Shown here in pieces: positions 10,860 through 47,143 of a DNA stretch of 64,000 bases. The DNA is from Escherichia coli 042 (GTDB lineage Bacteria > Pseudomonadota > Gammaproteobacteria > Enterobacterales > Enterobacteriaceae), in the NCBI RefSeq assembly GCF_000027125.1, contig NC_017626.1, one strand, 5' to 3'. Positions within the stretch are counted from its first letter, which is position 1, and each line of letters begins with the position of its first letter. The position numbers were made by a program, and so were the translations under genes. Under the pieces are notes generated by a model. That model was not told the origin of the DNA. It did not search any database and saw only the letters and a list, made by a program, of their open reading frames with translations.

Positions 10860-11975
10860 ATGAAAAAGCGGAAAACCGTGAAGAAGCGTTACGTTATTGC
10901 GCTGGTGATAGTCATCGCCGGGCTGATTACGTTATGGAGAATTCTTAACGCACCCGTGCCGACTTATCAGACGCTGATTGTGCGCCCCGGTGAATTACAG
11001 CAAAGCGTGCTGGCGACCGGAAAGCTGGACGCGCTGCGTAAGGTTGATGTGGGCGCGCAGGTCAGCGGTCAGTTGAAAACGCTGTCGGTGGCGATTGGCG
11101 ATAAAGTAAAAAAAGACCAGCTTTTAGGGGTTATTGATCCTGAACAGGCTGAAAACCAGATTAAGGAGGTGGAAGCAACGCTGATGGAGCTACGCGCGCA
11201 GCGGCAGCAGGCGGAAGCGGAGCTGAAACTGGCGCGGGTGACGTATTCCCGTCAGCAACGTCTTGCACAAACGCAAGCGGTTTCACAGCAGGATCTTGAT
11301 ACCGCCGCGACGGAGATGGCTGTGAAACAGGCGCAAATTGGCACCATTGACGCGCAAATCAAGCGCAATCAGGCCTCACTCGATACGGCTAAAACCAATC
11401 TCGATTACACCCGCATCGTTGCCCCGATGGCCGGGGAAGTCACGCAAATAACCACTCTGCAAGGCCAGACGGTGATTGCCGCACAACAAGCACCGAACAT
11501 TCTGACGCTGGCAGATATGAGCACCATGCTGGTAAAAGCGCAGGTTTCTGAAGCGGATGTAATCCACCTGAAGCCGGGGCAAAAAGCCTGGTTTACGGTG
11601 CTTGGCGATCCGCTGACGCGCTATGAGGGGCAAATCAAGGATGTGCTACCGACGCCGGAAAAGGTTAACGACGCTATTTTCTATTACGCCCGTTTTGAAG
11701 TCCCCAACCCCAATGGTTTGCTGCGGCTGGATATGACCGCGCAAGTGCATATTCAGCTCACCGATGTGAAAAATGTGCTGACGATCCCTCTGTCGGCGTT
11801 AGGCGATCCGGTTGGCGATAATCGTTATAAAGTCAAATTGTTGCGTAATGGTGAAACACGCGAGCGTGAAGTGACGATTGGCGCACGTAACGATACCGAT
11901 GTTGAGATTGTCAAAGGGTTGGAAGCGGGCGATGAAGTGGTGATTGGTGAGGCCAAACCAGGAGCTGCGCAATGA
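10860..11975 (+). CDS. macA: Macrolide efflux membrane-fusion (periplasmic adaptor) protein
   Basis: Start refined to [22 protein letters not shown]... (371 aa); coiled-coil region; overlaps macB start (ATGA). Confidence 0.9.
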
Positions 11976-13918
11976 CGCCCTTGCTCGAATTAAAGGATAT
12001 TCGTCGCAGCTATCCTGCCGGTGATGAGCAGGTTGAGGTGCTGAAGGGCATCACCCTCGATATTTATGCTGGTGAGATGGTGGCGATTGTCGGCGCTTCG
12101 GGTTCCGGTAAATCGACCCTGATGAATATTCTCGGCTGCCTGGATAAGGCCACCAGCGGCACCTATCGCGTAGCCGGTCAGGATGTTGCCACGCTGGACG
12201 CCGATGCGCTGGCGCAACTGCGTCGCGAACACTTCGGCTTTATTTTCCAGCGTTACCATTTGCTTTCGCATTTAACCGCCGAGCAGAACGTTGAAGTACC
12301 CGCCGTCTATGCCGGTCTTGAGCGGAAACAGCGGCTGCTTCGCGCCCAGGAGTTGCTGCAACGACTGGGGCTGGAAGACCGTACAGAGTATTATCCGGCA
12401 CAGCTTTCGGGTGGTCAGCAACAGCGCGTCAGCATCGCGCGGGCATTGATGAACGGCGGTCAGGTAATTCTTGCCGATGAACCGACCGGCGCACTGGACA
12501 GCCATTCTGGCGAAGAGGTGATGGCGATCCTGCATCAGCTGCGCGATCGCGGGCATACGGTGATTATCGTTACCCACGATCCGCAGGTTGCTGCTCAGGC
12601 CGAGCGGGTGATCGAAATTCGCGACGGCGAAATTGTGCGCAATCCTCCCGCCGTTGAAAAAGTGAATGCTACTGGCGGGACGGAACCTGTTGTCAACACT
12701 GCGTCTGGCTGGCGGCAGTTTGTCAGCGGTTTTAACGAGGCGCTGACGATGGCATGGCGGGCGCTGGCAGCGAATAAAATGCGTACTTTACTGACCATGC
12801 TGGGGATTATTATCGGTATTGCGTCGGTGGTTTCCATTGTCGTGGTGGGCGACGCCGCCAAACAAATGGTGCTGGCGGATATTCGTTCTATTGGTACGAA
12901 TACTATTGACGTCTACCCCGGGAAAGATTTTGGCGATGACGATCCGCAATATCAGCAGGCGCTGAAGTACGACGACTTAATCGCCATCCAAAAACAACCG
13001 TGGGTCGCCTCAGCCACACCTGCCGTCTCGCAAAACCTGCGCCTGCGTTATAACAATGTTGATGTGGCTGCCAGTGCCAATGGCGTGAGCGGCGATTATT
13101 TTAATGTCTATGGCATGACCTTCAGTGAAGGGAACACCTTTAATCAGGAGCAGCTGAACGGTCGTGCGCAGGTCGTGGTTCTCGACAGTAATACTCGCCG
13201 CCAGCTTTTCCCCCATAAAGCAGATGTGGTTGGCGAGGTGATTCTGGTCGGCAATATGCCCGCCAGAGTCATTGGTGTGGCGGAAGAAAAACAGTCGATG
13301 TTTGGTAGCAGTAAAGTGCTGCGTGTCTGGCTACCTTACAGCACGATGTCCGGGCGAGTTATGGGCCAGTCGTGGCTGAACTCCATTACTGTCAGGGTGA
13401 AAGAAGGATTTGACAGCGCCGAGGCGGAACAGCAACTCACGCGTTTACTTTCACTGCGCCACGGTAAGAAGGATTTCTTTACCTGGAACATGGACGGCGT
13501 CTTGAAAACCGTTGAAAAGACCACACGTACTTTACAACTGTTTCTGACGCTGGTGGCGGTGATTTCGCTAGTGGTGGGCGGTATTGGTGTAATGAATATT
13601 ATGCTGGTGTCAGTGACCGAGCGGACGCGGGAAATTGGCATTCGCATGGCTGTAGGTGCGCGAGCAAGTGATGTGTTGCAACAGTTCCTGATCGAAGCCG
13701 TGCTGGTTTGCCTGGTCGGTGGCGCGTTGGGAATAACACTGTCACTGTTAATTGCTTTCACCTTGCAGCTTTTCTTATCCGGCTGGGAGATTGGTTTTTC
13801 ACCGTTGGCGTTGCTGCTGGCGTTTCTCTGCTCGACGGTCACCGGGATTTTATTTGGCTGGTTACCCGCACGAAATGCGGCACGACTGGATCCAGTAGAT
13901 GCTCTGGCTCGAGAGTAA
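11972..13918 (+). CDS. macB: Macrolide ABC exporter, fused ATPase-permease
   Basis: 648 aa; Walker [10 protein letters not shown]; ABC signature LSGGQQQRV; C-terminal FtsX-like permease domain. Confidence 0.93.
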
Positions 13919-13928
13919 TTTTTGAGAT

Positions 13929-13959
13929 AAAAATGCCAGCCGATCGGGCTGGCATTTTG
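13929..13959. terminator. Bidirectional hairpin terminator between convergent macB and cspD
   Basis: aaaatgccagcc-gatcg-ggctggcatttt: perfect 7-bp GC stem flanked by A-run and T-run. Confidence 0.75.
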
Positions 13960-13990
13960 CCTTTAGGATGTACACAATGAGACAGAAGAG

Positions 13991-14215
13991 CTATGCGACT
14001 GCCGCTTCTACTTCGACGGGCACAATAACACTGGCGTGATTGCCTTTTGGCCCCTGGTGGACATCAAACTGAACGGATTGTCCAGCTTTTAGCGTTCTGT
14101 AACCATCCATCTGAATGGTGGAATAATGAGCGAAAATATCTTCGCCGCCGCCTTCAGGGCAGATGAAACCAAACCCTTTGGCATTGTTGAACCACTTAAC
14201 AGTACCCTTTTCCAT
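13991..14215 (-). CDS. cspD: Cold-shock-domain protein CspD (stationary-phase replication inhibitor)
   Basis: Start refined to MEKGTVKWFNNAKGFGFICPEGGGEDIFAHYSTIQMDGYRTLKAGQ...; 74 aa. Confidence 0.92.
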   Translation of the reverse strand: MEKGTVKWFNNAKGFGFICPEGGGEDIFAHYSTIQMDGYRTLKAGQSVQFDVHQGPKGNHASVIVPVEVEAAVA

Positions 14216-14537
14216 GCTTCGACATCCTTCGCAAATCTTATACAAGTAAGATGGAATAAACCGGGGTCAGAGAGGGGGCTGTTCAAAACCTCGCCAACTC
14301 TAGAAATACAATTTAGAGAATTAGGGCGAGCCGTCAAGCATTTGACAGGGGCCAGGGGGCAGGTATGAATCAAAAATTTGAAGCAGTTAACGCTATTGAC
14401 AGGAATGTGACAGATGTCGCTGATGCCAACGATAGATGATAGTTATCTATCATGTGGAGTAGATTGGTCAGGCAAATAAGCTCTTGTCAGCGGCAGGGTG
14501 TTCTGCCGATAACCGTAACCGAAGATGATAACTGACA

Positions 14538-14858
14538 ATGGGTAAAACGAACGACTGGCTGGACTTTGATCAACTGGCGGAAGAAAAAGTTCGCGACGCG
14601 CTAAAACCGCCATCTATGTATAAAGTGATATTAGTCAATGATGATTACACTCCGATGGAGTTTGTTATTGACGTGTTACAAAAATTCTTTTCTTATGATG
14701 TAGAACGTGCAACGCAATTGATGCTCGCTGTTCACTACCAGGGGAAGGCCATTTGCGGAGTCTTTACCGCCGAGGTTGCAGAAACCAAAGTGGCGATGGT
14801 GAACAAGTACGCGAGGGAGAATGAGCATCCATTGCTGTGTACGCTAGAAAAAGCCTGA
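14538..14858 (+). CDS. clpS: ClpA adaptor protein ClpS (N-end rule)
   Basis: 106 aa [47 protein letters not shown]... Confidence 0.94.
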
Positions 14859-14888
14859 ATGCAGGCATAAAAATTGGGGGAGGTGCCT

Positions 14889-17165
14889 ATGCTCAATCAA
14901 GAACTGGAACTCAGTTTAAATATGGCTTTCGCCAGAGCGCGCGAGCACCGTCATGAGTTTATGACCGTCGAGCACTTGTTACTGGCGCTGCTCAGTAACC
15001 CATCTGCCCGGGAGGCGCTGGAAGCGTGTTCTGTGGATTTGGTTGCGCTCCGTCAGGAACTGGAAGCCTTTATTGAACAAACCACACCCGTTCTGCCTGC
15101 CAGTGAAGAGGAGCGCGACACACAGCCGACGCTGAGTTTTCAGCGTGTACTGCAACGTGCGGTCTTCCATGTCCAGTCCTCCGGTCGCAATGAGGTTACC
15201 GGTGCAAACGTTCTGGTCGCTATCTTTAGCGAACAGGAGTCGCAGGCGGCATATCTGTTGCGTAAACATGAAGTCAGCCGTCTCGATGTGGTGAACTTTA
15301 TCTCTCATGGCACGCGTAAAGACGAGCCGACACAGTCTTCTGATCCTGGCAGCCAGCCAAACAGCGAAGAACAAGCTGGTGGGGAGGAACGTATGGAGAA
15401 TTTCACGACGAACCTGAATCAGCTTGCGCGCGTGGGCGGAATCGACCCACTGATTGGTCGTGAGAAGGAGCTGGAGCGTGCTATTCAGGTTCTCTGCCGT
15501 CGCCGTAAAAACAACCCGCTGCTGGTGGGGGAATCTGGTGTCGGTAAAACCGCGATTGCGGAAGGTCTTGCCTGGCGAATTGTTCAGGGCGATGTGCCGG
15601 AAGTGATGGCTGACTGTACGATTTACTCTCTCGATATCGGTTCTCTGTTAGCGGGCACAAAATATCGCGGCGACTTTGAAAAACGTTTTAAAGCGTTGCT
15701 CAAGCAGCTGGAGCAGGATACTAACAGCATCCTGTTTATTGATGAGATCCACACCATTATCGGTGCGGGTGCAGCCTCTGGTGGCCAGGTCGATGCGGCT
15801 AACCTGATCAAACCGCTGCTCTCCAGCGGTAAAATTCGCGTAATTGGTTCGACAACCTATCAGGAGTTCAGCAACATTTTCGAGAAAGACCGTGCTCTGG
15901 CGCGTCGCTTCCAGAAAATTGATATTACTGAACCGTCGATCGAAGAAACTGTTCAAATCATCAATGGCCTGAAACCGAAGTATGAAGCGCACCACGACGT
16001 GCGTTATACCGCAAAAGCGGTGCGTGCAGCGGTAGAGCTGGCGGTGAAATACATTAACGATCGTCATCTGCCGGATAAAGCCATTGACGTTATCGACGAA
16101 GCGGGCGCTCGCGCACGCCTGATGCCGGTAAGCAAACGCAAGAAAACCGTTAATGTGGCGGATATTGAGTCCGTGGTGGCCCGTATTGCGCGCATTCCAG
16201 AGAAGAGTGTTTCGCAGAGTGACCGCGATACCCTGAAAAACCTCGGCGATCGCCTGAAAATGCTGGTCTTCGGTCAGGATAAAGCCATTGAGGCGCTGAC
16301 TGAAGCCATTAAGATGGCGCGTGCAGGTTTAGGTCACGAACATAAACCGGTCGGTTCGTTCCTGTTTGCAGGCCCTACCGGGGTCGGGAAAACAGAGGTG
16401 ACGGTACAGCTTTCGAAAGCTTTGGGCATTGAGCTTCTGCGCTTTGATATGTCCGAGTATATGGAACGCCATACCGTCAGCCGTCTGATTGGTGCGCCTC
16501 CGGGATACGTTGGTTTTGATCAGGGCGGTTTGCTGACTGATGCGGTCATCAAGCATCCACATGCGGTGCTGCTGCTGGACGAAATCGAGAAAGCGCACCC
16601 GGACGTGTTCAATATTCTGTTGCAGGTGATGGACAACGGTACGCTGACCGATAACAACGGACGCAAAGCGGACTTCCGTAACGTGGTGCTGGTGATGACC
16701 ACCAACGCTGGGGTACGAGAAACTGAGCGTAAATCGATTGGTCTTATCCACCAGGATAACAGCACCGATGCGATGGAAGAGATCAAGAAGATCTTTACGC
16801 CGGAGTTTCGTAACCGTCTCGACAACATTATCTGGTTCGATCATCTCTCCACCGACGTGATCCATCAGGTGGTGGATAAATTCATCGTCGAGTTGCAGGT
16901 TCAGCTGGATCAGAAAGGTGTTTCTCTGGAAGTGAGCCAGGAAGCGCGTAACTGGCTGGCCGAGAAAGGTTACGACCGGGCAATGGGCGCACGTCCGATG
17001 GCGCGTGTCATCCAGGACAACCTGAAAAAACCGCTCGCCAACGAACTGCTGTTTGGTTCGCTGGTGGACGGCGGTCAGGTCACCGTCGCGCTGGATAAAG
17101 AGAAAAATGAGCTGACTTACGGATTCCAGAGTGCACAAAAGCACAAGGCGGAAGCAGCGCATTAA
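14889..17165 (+). CDS. clpA: ATP-dependent Clp protease ATPase/chaperone subunit ClpA
   Basis: Start refined to [24 protein letters not shown] (758 aa); two AAA+ modules (GESGVGKT and GPTGVGKT Walker A motifs). Confidence 0.96.
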
Positions 17166-17190
17166 TCTAATTGTTAGGTAGGTTGGTGAA

Positions 17191-17226
17191 GTCCGTAATC
17201 TCGAAAGAGGTTACGGACTTTTTGTT
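17191..17226 (+). terminator. Rho-independent terminator of clpA
   Basis: 8-bp stem gtccgtaa/ttacggac with 12-nt loop, followed by tttttgtttg. Confidence 0.75.
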
Positions 17227-17377
17227 TGTAGGCTGGGGCGGTGAAAACCCTATTTTTGGAGGTGAAGGTAAGTTGTTGATAATTAATGGTGCTGGAAGGT
17301 AAGAATAAAAAAGGGTGGCAGCAGGAAAATGAGATGATTTTGCTTTATTAACAACGAGCTAAACGTGTAGTATTTGA

Positions 17378-17525
17378 GTTCACTGCCGTACAGGCAGCTT
17401 AGAAAGGCAGAAGACAACAGCGCAAAATGGACATATCGTTCACTGCCGTACAGGCAGCTTAGAAATTCGTACTTAACGAACTGTTGCTCCTCTGCTGGTT
17501 CACTGTCGTACAGGCAGATAAAATG
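17378..17525 (+). CRISPR. Orphan type I-F CRISPR mini-array (3 repeats, 2 spacers), no adjacent cas genes
   Basis: 28-bp repeat GTTCACTGCCGTACAGGCAGCTTAGAAA at 17378-17405 and 17438-17465; degenerate terminal repeat GTTCACTGTCGTACAGGCAGATAAAATG at 17498-17525; 32-bp spacers GGCAGAAGACAACAGCGCAAAATGGACATATC and TTCGTACTTAACGAACTGTTGCTCCTCTGCTG; AT-rich putative leader upstream (about 17230-17377). Confidence 0.88.
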
Positions 17526-17584
17526 CGAAAAAAGCTCGTACTTTCGTACGCGCTTTTCTTTAAATATGACGGTGAGGGGGGATT
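17523..17584. repeat. Partial duplicate of the serW 3' end plus its terminator (att-like scar)
   Basis: 17523-17584 (atgcgaaaaaagctcgtactttcgtacgcgcttttctttaaatatgacggtgaggggggatt) is about 85% identical to 17700-17764, which carries the authentic serW terminator and 3' end. Confidence 0.7.
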
Positions 17585-17703
17585 GACTCGCTTCGCTCGC
17601 CCTGCGGGCAGCCCGCTCACTGCGTTCACGGTCTGTCCAACTGGCTATCGCCAGTTGTCGCCCCCCGGTAGGGGCTTCTCATCCCCCCTGGAGTGCAATA
17701 TGC

Positions 17704-17733
17704 GAAAAAAAAGCTCGCACTTTCGTACGAGCT
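17704..17733 (-). terminator. Rho-independent terminator of serW
   Basis: Minus strand reads agctcgtac-gaaa-gtgcgagct (GNRA tetraloop) followed by T8, immediately 3' of the tRNA. Confidence 0.85.
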
Positions 17734-17745
17734 CTTCTTTGAATA

Positions 17746-17833
17746 TGGCGGTGAGGGGGGGATTCGAACCCCCGATACGTTGCCGTATACACACTTTCCA
17801 GGCGTGCTCCTTCAGCCACTCGGACACCTCACC
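17746..17833 (-). tRNA. serW: tRNA-Ser (anticodon GGA), 88 nt with encoded CCA
   Basis: Reverse complement is GGTGAGGTGTCCGAGTGGCTGAAGGAGCACGCCTGGAAAGTGTGTATACGGCAACGTATCGGGGGTTCGAATCCCCCCCTCACCGCCA; long variable arm; class II tRNA. Confidence 0.96.
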
Positions 17834-18086: not shown

Positions 18087-18308
<222 letters not shown>

Positions 18309-25086: not shown

Positions 25087-28000
25087 TTGAGCCAGGAATA
25101 CACTGAAGACAAAGAAGTCACATTGACAAAGTTAAGTAGCGGCCGCCGCCTTCTGGAGGCGTTGCTGATCCTTATTGTCCTGTTTGCCGTCTGGTTGATG
25201 GCTGCCTTACTAAGCTTTAACCCTTCGGACCCCAGCTGGTCGCAAACGGCCTGGCATGAACCTATCCATAATTTAGGTGGGATGCCCGGTGCGTGGCTGG
25301 CAGATACGCTGTTCTTTATTTTTGGCGTGATGGCTTACACCATTCCCGTCATTATTGTCGGCGGTTGTTGGTTTGCCTGGCGTCATCAGTCCAGCGACGA
25401 ATACATTGATTATTTTGCCGTTTCGCTACGCATCATTGGCGTTTTGGCGCTCATCCTTACCTCCTGTGGTCTGGCGGCAATCAACGCTGACGATATCTGG
25501 TATTTTGCCTCCGGTGGCGTCATTGGCAGCTTACTAAGCACTACGCTACAACCACTGCTACACAGTAGCGGGGGAACTATTGCGCTGCTCTGCGTTTGGG
25601 CAGCGGGCCTGACGCTGTTCACCGGTTGGTCATGGGTGACCATTGCTGAAAAACTCGGCGGCTGGATTTTAAATATTCTTACCTTCGCCAGTAATCGTAC
25701 CCGTCGCGATGATACCTGGGTCGATGAAGATGAGTATGAAGATGACGAAGAGTATGAAGATGAAAATCACGGCAAACAGCATGAATCACGCCGTGCTCGT
25801 ATTCTTCGCGGCGCGCTAGCGCGTCGTAAACGGTTGGCGGAAAAATTCATTAATCCGATGGGGCGGCAAACAGACGCTGCGTTGTTCTCCGGTAAGCGGA
25901 TGGATGATGACGAAGAGATTACCTACACTGCACGCGGTGTGGCTGCCGACCCTGACGACGTCCTCTTTTCGGGCAATCGTGCAACGCAGCCAGAATATGA
26001 CGAGTACGATCCATTATTAAACGGTGCGCCAATTACCGAACCTGTTGCTGTAGCAGCTGCTGCTACCACGGCGACGCAAAGCTGGGCTGCACCGGTTGAA
26101 CCTGTGACTCAGACGCCATCTGTTGCCTCTGTTGATGTTGCACCTGCACAACCTACAGTAGCCTGGCAGCCTGTACCGGGGCCACAAACGGGAGAGCCGG
26201 TGATTGCTCCTGCACCGGAAGGTTACCCACAGCAGCCACAATATGCGCAGCCTGCAGTGCAATATAATGAGCCGCTGCAACAACCTGTACAGCCACAGCA
26301 GCCGTATTATGCGCCTGCGGCGGAACAACCTGTTCAGCAACCGTATTACGCAACTGCGCCGGAACAGTCTGCGCAACAGTCGTATTACGCCCCTGCGCCA
26401 GAACAATCGGTGGCAGGTAACGCCTGGCAAGCCGAAGAGCAGCAATCCACTTTTGCTCCACAGTCTACATACCAGACTGAGCAAACTTATCAGCAGCCAG
26501 TCGCTCAGGAGCCGTTGTACCAACAGCCGCAACCTGTTGAACAGCAGCCTGTTGTGGAGCCTGAACCCGTTGTAGAAGAGACAAAACCCGCGCGTCCGCC
26601 GCTTTACTACTTTGAAGAAGTGGAAGAGAAGCGAGCCCGTGAACGTGAACAACTTGCGGCCTGGTATCAACCGATTCCAGAACCGGTTAAAGAACCAGAA
26701 CCGATCAAATCTTCGCTGAAAGCACCTTCTGTTGCAGCAGTACCTCCAGTAGAAGCCGCTGCCGCTGTTTCTCCGCTGGCATCTGGCGTGAAAAAAGCGA
26801 CACTGGCGACGGGGGCTGCCGCAACCGTTGCCGCGCCAGTCTTCAGTCTGGCAAATAGCGGTGGACCGCGTCCGCAGGTCAAAGAGGGGATTGGCCCGCA
26901 GTTGCCACGACCGAAACGTATCCGCGTGCCAACTCGTCGTGAATTGGCGTCTTACGGTATTAAGCTGCCCTCACAGCGTGCGGCGGAAGAAAAAGCCCGT
27001 GAAGCCCAGCGCAATCAGTACGATTCTGGCGATCAGTACAACGATGATGAAATCGATGCGATGCAGCAGGATGAACTGGCACGTCAGTTCGCCCAGACAC
27101 AGCAGCAACGCTATGGCGAACAGTATCAACATGATGTGCCCGTAAACGCAGAAGATGCAGATGCTGCGGCAGAGGCTGAACTGGCTCGTCAGTTTGCGCA
27201 AACTCAACAACAACGTTATTCCGGCGAACAACCGGCTGGGGCGAATCCGTTCTCGCTGGATGATTTTGAATTTTCGCCAATGAAAGCGTTGCTGGATGAT
27301 GGTCCACACGAACCGTTGTTTACGCCAATTGTTGAACCTGTACAGCAGCCGCAACAACCGGTTGCACCGCAGCAGCAGTATCAGCAGCCACAACAGCCGG
27401 TTGCGCCACAGCAGCAATATCAGCAGCCGCAACAGCCGGTTGCGCCGCAGCAGCAGTATCAGCAGCCACAACAGCAGGTTGCGCCGCAGCCACAATATCA
27501 GCAGCCGCAACAACCGGTTGCGCCACAGCAGCAATATCAGCAGCCGCAACAGCCGGTTGCGCCGCAGCAGCAGTATCAACAGCTGCAACAACCGGTTGCA
27601 CCGCAGCCGCAGTATCAGCAGCCACAACAGCCAGTTGCGCCACAGCCGCAGGATACCCTGCTTCATCCGCTGTTGATGCGCAATGGTGACAGCCGTCCGT
27701 TGCATAAACCGACGACGCCGCTGCCTTCTCTGGATTTGCTGACGCCGCCGCCGAGCGAAGTGGAGCCGGTAGATACCTTTGCGCTTGAACAAATGGCGCG
27801 CCTGGTGGAAGCGCGTCTGGCTGATTTCCGTATTAAAGCCGATGTCGTCAATTATTCTCCGGGGCCGGTTATCACTCGCTTTGAATTGAACCTGGCACCG
27901 GGCGTAAAAGCGGCGCGTATTTCTAACTTGTCACGTGACCTTGCCCGTTCACTTTCGACGGTGGCGGTGCGTGTCGTTGAAGTTATTCCTGGCAAACCCT

Positions 28001-32700: not shown

Positions 32701-32720
32701 TACCCAATTTTTCTGAATCT

Positions 32721-32747
32721 AAAAAGCGCCTGCGGGCGCTTTTTTTG
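32721..32747 (+). terminator. Rho-independent terminator of serS
   Basis: aaaaagcgcc-tgcg-ggcgct followed by ttttttt; perfect 6-bp GC stem. Confidence 0.85.
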
Positions 32748-32938
32748 TCTCCCTTTGATACCGAACAATAATTACTCCTCACTTACACGTAATACTACTT
32801 TCGAGTGAAAATCTACCTATCTCTTTGATTTTCAAATTATTCGATGTATACAAGCCTATATAGCGACCTGCTATAGAAATAATTACACAATACGGTTTGT
32901 TACTGGAATCAATCGTGAGCAAGCTTGAGTGAGCCATT

Positions 32939-40641: not shown

Positions 40642-40803
40642 TTATTGTGGTCGGTGACGCTGACTCTGGCAGATCTGACCCGTTTTTACATAATCGAGAA
40701 ATGCGCGTAAGCCGCAGGACATATACTGGCGGTTTGGGTAATACATTTGGAAGCTGTGCTGTAAGGGCGTTAGAAATAGAGCTCTGAATTATTTATGCAG
40801 AGC

Positions 40804-45382: not shown

Positions 45383-47143
45383 TTATTTTGCCCAGAATGC
45401 TGCTTTGGCGCGCTGCAGCTTTTCGTAGGCCTTCAACAACGACTGATGTGCAGCAAACGCGTGCAGATCGCAATCTACTGGTTGCAAGCCATAAAACGCC
45501 GCTTCGCTGCTCATTGCCGCACTGGCGGCTTCCACGGCATCTGCGCCGTACATGCGAACAAACGCATTCAAATATTGCAGCGGCTGGCGATCTTCTTCCT
45601 GCGCCAGTAATAACAACGTTTGCAGGCAGCGATAATAGTTGGCGCGTTCCGGACTAAATACTGATGAGTTAAACTCCATCGTCCATTCGGTCCAGACCAG
45701 AGCCTGTTCCAGATCGCCACCAGCCAGCGCCAGCATGGCTTTTAATTCTCCGATACGCAGGGTGTACCAACCGTTATCCGACCCGGTCGCCAGACCCAAC
45801 AGCTCACGCACGCGAGTAAAGTCATCAAAACCTTCTTCATCCAGTTGCTCGATAAGGTTCAGGTAATCTTCTTTTTCCCACTCGCTGCCTGGTAACGAAA
45901 GAATCGTTTCACGTAAATGGCTGCCCATACTGTTATTCGCTAACCACAAATCTTCAGCCGGATAAATATCGGACATGCCAGGCACGATAATTCGGCAAGC
46001 ATAAACGCCCAGATGCTCGTAATCGGCAATATAAACTTCTTTATCTTCTTTGTTGAAGATAGCCATCAGCGTAGCAAACTCTTCTTCCGTAGTGCCGGAG
46101 AAATTCCAGTCCACAAACGGATAATCGGCATCCAGCTTGAACAGGTCCCAGGAGATTAAACCGCTGGAATCGATAAAGTGCGTTTCGAGGTTGGTATGTT
46201 CAGCAACTTCTTCATCATCGAAGGTTGGCGGAGTAAACACATCCAAATCTTTCAGGCCACGACCTTGCAGCAGCTCGGTCACGGTACGTTCCAGTGCTAC
46301 GCCAAAATCAGGATGTGCACCGAAAGAGGCAAAGCAGGTGCCGTTAGCAGGATTAAACAGAACCACGCAAATCACCGGATACTGGCCGCCAAGGGAACCA
46401 TCATATGCGAAGATCGGGAAACCTTCTGCTTCCAGCGTTTCGATGGCTTCAACCACCGCAGGGTAACGCGCCAGCACGTCTGCCGGGATTTCCGGCAAGC
46501 TGATGCTTTCAGCAATAATGCGGTTTTTCACGTAGCGTTCGAAAACTTCGGACAACCCCTGAACGCGTGCTTCGTTACGGGTATTGCCAGCGGACATACC
46601 GTTAGAAACGTACAGGTTACCAATGATATTCATCGGAATATAAACGGTCTGATTATCTGACTGGCGCGTAAACGGCAGACCGCAAATACCACGATCTTCG
46701 TTACCGGATTGTAGGTCAATCAGCATACTGCCGGTCAATTCATTCTCCGGATCGTAAAATGCGCGCAGACGGTCATCGAGCAGCCCTTCTGGCACATCGT
46801 CATTTTCGCTCAGTGGGAACCATTTTTCGTTGGGATAATGCACGAACGGACCGTTGGCGATGGTTTCGCCCAGCCAGAAATCAGCAAAAAAGTAGTTGGT
46901 TGAGAGACGCTCGAAATATTCACCGAGTGCAGAAGCCAGCGCCGCTTTTTTGGTTGCGCCTTTACCGTTGGTAAAACACAGTGCGCACTCTTTGTCGCGA
47001 ATATGTACAGACCAGACGTTAGGCACCGGATTCAGCCAGGAGGCCTCTTCAATCTGAAAGCCGAGGTCTGAAAGTTTTTGCTGGAAGCGAGCGATGGAAT
47101 CTTCCAGTGCGGCATCTTTGCCGGGGATAAATGTTTGCGTCAT
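45383..47143 (-). CDS. ycaO: YcaO-domain protein (ATP-dependent; works with RimO in ribosomal protein S12 methylthiolation)
   Basis: ORF 45383-47176; start refined to MTQTFIPGKDAALEDSIARFQQKLSDLGFQIEEASWLNPVPNVWSVHIRDK... (586 aa). Confidence 0.9.
   Translation of the reverse strand: MTQTFIPGKDAALEDSIARFQQKLSDLGFQIEEASWLNPVPNVWSVHIRDKECALCFTNGKGATKKAALASALGEYFERLSTNYFFADFWLGETIANGPFVHYPNEKWFPLSENDDVPEGLLDDRLRAFYDPENELTGSMLIDLQSGNEDRGICGLPFTRQSDNQTVYIPMNIIGNLYVSNGMSAGNTRNEARVQGLSEVFERYVKNRIIAESISLPEIPADVLARYPAVVEAIETLEAEGFPIFAYDGSLGGQYPVICVVLFNPANGTCFASFGAHPDFGVALERTVTELLQGRGLKDLDVFTPPTFDDEEVAEHTNLETHFIDSSGLISWDLFKLDADYPFVDWNFSGTTEEEFATLMAIFNKEDKEVYIADYEHLGVYACRIIVPGMSDIYPAEDLWLANNSMGSHLRETILSLPGSEWEKEDYLNLIEQLDEEGFDDFTRVRELLGLATGSDNGWYTLRIGELKAMLALAGGDLEQALVWTEWTMEFNSSVFSPERANYYRCLQTLLLLAQEEDRQPLQYLNAFVRMYGADAVEAASAAMSSEAAFYGLQPVDCDLHAFAAHQSLLKAYEKLQRAKAAFWAK

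Follow-up and report, generated by a model that had tools for sequence, protein, structure and literature searches.

The short repeat array at 17378-17525 of the 64-kb window (the whole stretch of Escherichia coli 042 DNA that was analysed) is probably an orphan derivative of CRISPR4.1, the clpA-side type I-F array of E. coli, which has lost its cas operon and whose two spacers, directed against csy2 (spacer 1, S1) and cas3f (spacer 2, S2), form a barrier to re-acquisition of a type I-F system. This interpretation follows the work of Almendros, Guzman, Garcia-Martinez and Mojica (2016, Nat Microbiol 1:16081) on orphan arrays, as it is summarized in two reviews of the same group (PMC5972030, PMC8616872). 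We regard the array as the orphan form of CRISPR4.1 because its leader, repeat, orientation and position are common with those of the cas-positive strains.

The array consists of three type I-F repeats, whose starts are separated by 60 and 60 nt, leaving two spacers of 32 nt (Table 1). The sequence shared by repeats 1 and 2, GTTCACTGCCGTACAGGCAGCTTAGAAA, is the exact I-F consensus, and each of the two copies scores 50.1 bits with the Rfam model CRISPR-DR4 (RF01317, gathering score 35). Repeat 3, GTTCACTGTCGTACAGGCAGATAAAATG, is identical to them at 22 of 28 positions and scores 25.4 bits. RNAfold predicted the same structure for all three repeats, .....(((((.....)))))........, which is a hairpin of the I-F type with a 5-bp stem and a 5-nt loop, the stem ending at position 20. 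The energy of the hairpin is -8.6 kcal/mol in repeat 1 and -5.9 kcal/mol in repeat 3. Neither spacer has a second copy within the 64-kb window, and no further repeat copy of note turned up when the entire window was scanned with as many as 9 mismatches permitted. One segment (45509-45536) with 9 mismatches was judged to be a chance match. The repeat scan and the Rfam scores thus bore out an earlier note on this DNA, which had described three 28-bp I-F repeats and two 32-bp spacers at this place.

Table 1. Coordinates of the array and of the neighbouring features in the window
Feature	Position	Strand	Description
clpA	14889-17165	+	ORF; collinear with K-12 clpA; named clpA in every matching E. 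coli record
clpA intrinsic-terminator-like hairpin	17188-17221	+	15-bp stem and T run; between clpA and leader
Array leader	17222-17377	+	61.5% A+T; homologous to the CRISPR4.1 leader of cas-positive strains
Repeat 1	17378-17405	+	Exact consensus; CRISPR-DR4 50.1 bits
Spacer 1 (S1), leader-proximal, anti-csy2	17406-17437	+	GGCAGAAGACAACAGCGCAAAATGGACATATC
Repeat 2	17438-17465	+	Exact consensus; CRISPR-DR4 50.1 bits
Spacer 2 (S2), trailer-proximal, anti-cas3f (cas2-3)	17466-17497	+	TTCGTACTTAACGAACTGTTGCTCCTCTGCTG
Terminal repeat 3	17498-17525	+	C9>U; 3' 8 nt diverged
Bidirectional terminator-like hairpin and T run	17537-17560	both	Copy of the serW terminator; 12 nt past the array
179-bp direct-repeat unit	17528-17706	-	Second serW terminator and serW 3' end, then RtT-like sequence; outside the CRISPR array
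serW, tRNA-Ser(GGA)	17746-17833	-	ARAGORN, Rfam tRNA; convergent with the array
infA	18087-18305	-	ORF; 99.4% identical to K-12

The same note had called the third repeat a degenerate terminal copy. The divergence is real, but most of the tail appears to be something other than decayed repeat. There is a single change in the first 20 nt, C9>U, by which a C-G pair of the stem becomes U.G and the hairpin is kept. The final 8 nt have diverged, and approximately six of them (17520-17525) are part of the adjacent serW-downstream repeat unit: homology between the two serW-downstream units begins at 17520. The junction, CAGATAAAATGCG, is identical in K-12. Plain mutational decay was partly rejected on these two grounds, and judged by the homology most of the tail of repeat 3 represents the junction to the neighbouring unit.

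The position of the array directly between clpA and serW/infA, as it had been described, holds for the clpA side and for the locus, but on the other side the 179-bp unit separates the array from serW. The two copies of the serW terminator and 3' end (17528-17581 and 17707-17760) are 91% identical. The Rfam model RtT (RF00391) matched 17567-17702 on the minus strand with 33.6 bits, below its gathering score of 45, and the segment can be called RtT-like only. In its length of about 179 bp, in containing a copy of a tRNA 3' end and terminator, and in lying downstream of a tRNA gene, the unit resembles the RtT/tyrT-operon repeats; it differs from them in the score below gathering and in being linked to serW, not to tyrT. 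We take it to be comparable to the 178-bp tRNA-linked repeats of tyrT. The unit is absent from K-12 and present in strains N3 and 550, and some RefSeq genomes carry an 'RtT sRNA' annotation at its position.

With a genuine RtT-like repeat adjoining the array and overlapping the final bases of repeat 3, one could ask whether the array itself arose by chance or is a repeat of another kind, for instance a REP/BIME element or a piece of the tRNA-linked repeat. The probability of this is negligible: the 28-mers match the CRISPR-DR4 consensus exactly, score above gathering and recur every 60 nt, the full arrays of cas-positive strains have repeats identical to them, and the spacers between them have PAM-flanked protospacers (see below).

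The leader (156 nt) has an A+T content of 61.5%, compared with 49% for the window, and can be aligned with the corresponding sequence of K-12, N3, strain 550 and the cas-positive strain 504838. The AT-rich, leader-like stretch noticed earlier is thus confirmed by its composition and by its alignment with the clpA-side leader of cas-positive strains. The stretch that begins at the clpA end and includes the first repeats is 91-92% identical to that of the cas-positive strains 504838 and NRG 857C. The leader/array region was matched in 5418 of the 5426 complete E. coli genomes, so both repeats and leader are conserved here in nearly all genomes of the species; the earlier note had held that repeats lacking such conservation in related genomes would weaken the anti-cas interpretation. 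A simple consensus scan of the + strand of the leader found no sigma-70 site. By analogy with the cas-positive strains, transcription of the array would run towards serW, on the + strand. Of the two spacers, S1 lies next to the leader and is the younger, and S2 lies at the trailer end and is the older. The terminator-like hairpin beyond repeat 3 likely forms the 3' end of the pre-crRNA.

The segment comprising the 3' end of clpA and the leader (16800-17377) is 91-95% identical to K-12, 504838 and NRG 857C, and the serW-infA side shows 99.4-99.7% identity. The sharp change of divergence across the array suggests, as far as can be read from the alignments, past recombination at the clpA-serW site.

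No I-F cas gene was found in the 64-kb window by tblastn with the Cas1f, Cas3f, Csy1, Csy2, Csy3 and Cas6f proteins of E. coli 504838. The sole matches were short ones at S1 and S2 themselves, and the search with these six proteins found no hidden cas remnants. The array has no adjacent I-F cas operon (cas1, cas2-3, csy1-3, cas6f), which makes it an orphan array and not a complete system. Likewise, the repeat scan (up to 9 mismatches) found neither a CRISPR4.2 array nor a repeat remnant between serW and infA. Along its entire 64 kb the window is 98.0% identical to, and in the same order as, K-12 908365-973490, with the usual core genes, ltaE/poxB to cmoM. The absence of cas1, cas2-3 and csy genes from the window, already noticed in the open reading frames, is therefore upheld both by tblastn and by collinearity with the cas-less K-12. 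The best intergenic match reached only 97.9%, owing to the spacer differences and the divergent leader allele. An origin outside E. coli, which this figure had suggested, was rejected on the strength of the identity and collinearity with K-12.

Some further features of the window were recorded in the comparison with K-12. Around 40755-40795, approximately 40 bp stand in place of 1.5 kb of K-12 (948772-950284), and ycaN and ycaK are missing. In ftsK, the 39-nt and 117-nt in-frame tandem repeats of the Gln/Pro-rich linker (26296-26406 and 27343-27651) are arranged unlike those of K-12, which resulted in overlapping BLAST pieces. The minus strand at 32714-32848 strongly matches the enterobacterial sRNA STnc130 (RF02084, 140 bits), an ordinary feature unrelated to the array.

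The spacers were searched against 5426 complete E. coli genomes. S2 had matches in 414 of them. In 241 genomes S2 matches the antisense strand of cas3f, the fused cas2-3 gene, and in 173 genomes it occurs as a spacer of an array. Spacer and target were never found together (0 of 414): each genome has S2 in exactly one place. The match to cas3f is perfect (32/32) in 504838; in NRG 857C and Rb-50 it is 31/32, position 31 being the one that differs.

S1 had matches in 240 of the 5426 genomes, all of them chromosomal, and csy2 was matched in 238 genomes; among the matches listed, all lie in csy2 except the one in the array of strain N3. S1 is identical to csy2 of E. coli Rb-50 (32/32). In approximately 38 genomes, for example 504838, the identity to csy2 is 31/32 with the mismatch at position 28, whereas the common B2-type csy2 allele (NRG 857C) has 28/32 with mismatches at positions 20, 26, 27 and 31. 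Because of these four mismatches, S1 may only prime adaptation against the B2-type allele, without direct interference. N3 is the only other genome among the 5426 in which S1 was found as a spacer. Its array is identical to that of the window, and the surrounding 1.6 kb differ at 16 positions. N3 has no csy2 target, and neither csy2 nor cas3f gave a match in this genome.

Every protospacer examined, for both spacers and in three alleles of the cas operon, follows a 5'-CC on the spacer-sense strand, which corresponds to GG on the target strand. The I-F PAM in E. coli is GG on the leader-proximal side, and PAM regions of the GG type (GGC) support interference by the native I-F system of E. coli (PMC3506596). 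All mismatches of S1 and S2 are PAM-distal (positions 20-31 in S1) and fall outside the seed, and the seeds match perfectly. The suggestion that orphan arrays at this locus carry spacers against I-F cas genes is thus confirmed for both spacers, S1 matching csy2 and S2 matching cas3f at 28-32 of 32 positions next to a CC PAM.

The targeted cas operons are located between clpA and serW/infA, in agreement with the view that this interval is the chromosomal position of I-F CRISPR-Cas in E. coli. It is the very site that is empty here. The operons of 504838, NRG 857C and Rb-50 represent at least three alleles, which are only 90-93.6% identical to each other; the I-F cas operon alleles of E. coli are far more divergent than the flanking core genes. 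In Rb-50, a four-gene chaperone-usher fimbrial operon of the yehD type (11770-16578 of the retrieved locus) lies between cas6f and serW, that is, inside the I-F locus of the sole genome with a perfect S1 match in csy2.

The search that the earlier note had proposed, of both spacers against cas operons, plasmids and phages, returned matches to cas genes and no protospacer in a mobile element. Blastn of a spacer1-repeat-spacer2 query, run on 72,556 plasmids and 50,697 phages, brought no credible protospacer to light; it yielded only matches to I-F repeats, chromosomes mislabelled as plasmids, and, in Klebsiella phages, chance matches of 24/26 nt that span the repeat-spacer junction (E = 0.2). 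A role of the spacers against phages or plasmids was rejected, as there was no real target in a mobile element and the targets were found in cas genes instead.

The distribution of the targets also bears on the idea that the array is an ordinary satellite of I-F machinery whose genes lie beyond the window, for instance on a plasmid or a transposon. The sequence in view is 64 kb of the genome, and I-F repeats are present on plasmids of several genera. Against this, all csy2 and cas3f matches examined in E. coli genomes lie at the clpA-infA site, which is empty here. Moreover, a resident I-F1 operon would itself come under attack from S1 and S2 if it resembled the alleles known from E. coli, the S2 spacer and its target never co-occur, and neither csy2 nor cas3f was matched in N3, whose array is identical. 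We consider this explanation very improbable.

For the favoured interpretation, a barrier against I-F cas genes, we propose the following course of events, in which transcription, processing in trans and interference are inferred from the literature. The array would be transcribed from the leader towards serW, with a probable end at the hairpin at 17537-17560. As long as Cas6f is absent, the pre-crRNA should stay unprocessed and harmless. When an I-F cas operon enters the cell on DNA, the incoming Cas6f would cleave the resident transcript after G20 in repeats 1 to 3, and the products would be two complete crRNAs, each composed of the 5' handle CUUAGAAA, a 32-nt spacer and a 20-nt hairpin. The S2 crRNA would need just the first 20 nt of repeat 3, on the assumption that Cas6f tolerates the U.G pair in the stem. 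The incoming Csy1-3 proteins would then load on the resident crRNAs and be guided to the CC-flanked protospacers in csy2 and cas3f, and the incoming Cas2-3 would degrade the invading DNA, or kill the cell if the operon had already recombined into the chromosome. The net outcome would be a barrier to regaining an active I-F system. Such interference has indirect support in the finding that no genome combines the S2 spacer with its target. The anatomy of the array, with its two intact 5' handles, two predicted Cas6f hairpins 3' of the spacers, PAMs and seeds, fits the anti-cas model fully.

The same anatomy could be read as an inert relic: spacers targeting the system's own genes in a cas-positive ancestor would have caused autoimmunity, selection would have favoured deletion of the cas genes, and what is left would be a neutral scar. 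Starting from the same observation, cas-targeting spacers have been proposed as a cause of cas loss (PMC8616872). The terminal-repeat junction CAGATAAAATGCG, common to K-12, fits an old deletion, and the consensus scan found no promoter on the + strand of the leader. Conservation within the species is uninformative here, since for a 150-nt array it is too weak to prove selection for function. On the other hand, repeats 1 and 2 still have the exact consensus, and the leader has been kept in 5418 of 5426 genomes. The reviews cited above report that native orphan arrays of this type are expressed and block cas-carrying plasmids (PMC5972030, PMC8616872). An origin as a relic and a present role as a barrier are compatible. 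Because native orphan arrays are reported to be active, the relic explanation is not favoured as a complete account, and as such we consider it unlikely.

The barrier interpretation leaves room for a more specific reading of S1. The protospacer of S1 is located 3.9 kb from that of S2 on the cas operon; it lies to the 5' side, on the non-target strand. Among the spacers that I-F priming adds, those with this placement are the largest class (~43%; PMC4117759). S1 might be the natural record of a repelled cas invasion, acquired by S2-primed adaptation in an already cas-less lineage during the transient visit of an I-F operon. This reading is based on S1 being leader-proximal, rare, perfectly matched to one uncommon csy2 allele and in the commonest class of primed spacers. 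The evidence, a single spacer, is weak, and we put the reading forward as a tentative one that is rather doubtful. If it were true, orphan arrays would still be updated in the wild.

Sister arrays at the same locus carry other spacers of the same kind. K-12 has a single spacer, which targets cas1f, with a CC PAM. Strain 550 has two other spacers, directed against cas3f and cas1f, again with CC PAMs; its array (1293-1560 of the retrieved locus) contains four spacers, the first anti-cas3f spacer being tandemly duplicated. In strain 550 an integrase-bearing island is inserted in serW, of which just the 3' part of the tRNA is left beside the array. This strain (1198-1656 of the retrieved locus) and many RefSeq genomes have a 152-aa 'hypothetical protein' annotated across the orphan array on the minus strand. 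Almost certainly this call is an artefact of annotation.

The locus gives a clean, fully checkable instance of an array retained as a weapon against the cas genes of its own system, and its analysis is mainly a confirmation. Anti-cas arrays offer one explanation why most E. coli strains have no working I-F system and remain accessible to horizontally transferred genes. Genome annotation can also profit from the case: three repeats are enough for an array to be recognized and given an orientation with confidence, and the 'hypothetical proteins' that RefSeq places over such arrays are artefacts. In a small way, the rare csy2 spacer hints that orphan arrays may go on evolving.

Three known situations can be compared with the array of the window. 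In E. coli with a complete I-F locus (LF82, NRG 857C, UTI89, 504838, Rb-50), CRISPR4.1 has the same leader, repeat, orientation and position right after clpA. It contains at least 9 spacers and is followed by the operon cas1f-cas3f-csy1-csy2-csy3-cas6f and by a second array, CRISPR4.2, between serW and infA, whereas the array of the window has two spacers and is accompanied by neither cas genes nor a second array. We counted 9 spacers in the clpA-side array of NRG 857C, in agreement with CRISPR4.1 of its close relative LF82 (PMC3506596).

With self-targeting or autoimmune loss of CRISPR-Cas, the array shares spacers that match the system's own genes, and S2 and its target never occur in one genome. 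It differs in that the window genome has no target at clpA-infA and nothing is self-targeted now; the role proposed here is the exclusion of incoming DNA.

The closest relatives are the orphan CRISPR4 arrays of Almendros et al. (2016), which, as far as the two reviews describe them (PMC5972030, PMC8616872), have in common with the array of the window the species, the clpA-serW locus, the repeat, the leader, the lack of cas genes and the anti-cas spacers with the I-F PAM. According to these accounts, native orphan I-F arrays are constitutively expressed, interfere with plasmids carrying I-F cas genes, and trigger primed adaptation. We found no difference in kind between them and the array of the window. 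What distinguishes the latter is the combination of S1 and S2, which is rare and was found only in N3 among the 5426 genomes, S2 alone being a spacer in 173. The orphan I-F array is an already known element, nearly universal in E. coli without I-F cas genes, and the one described here belongs to the 'anti-cas' arrays in textbook form and does not represent a novel type of element; only S1, the rare csy2 spacer next to the leader, is mildly new.
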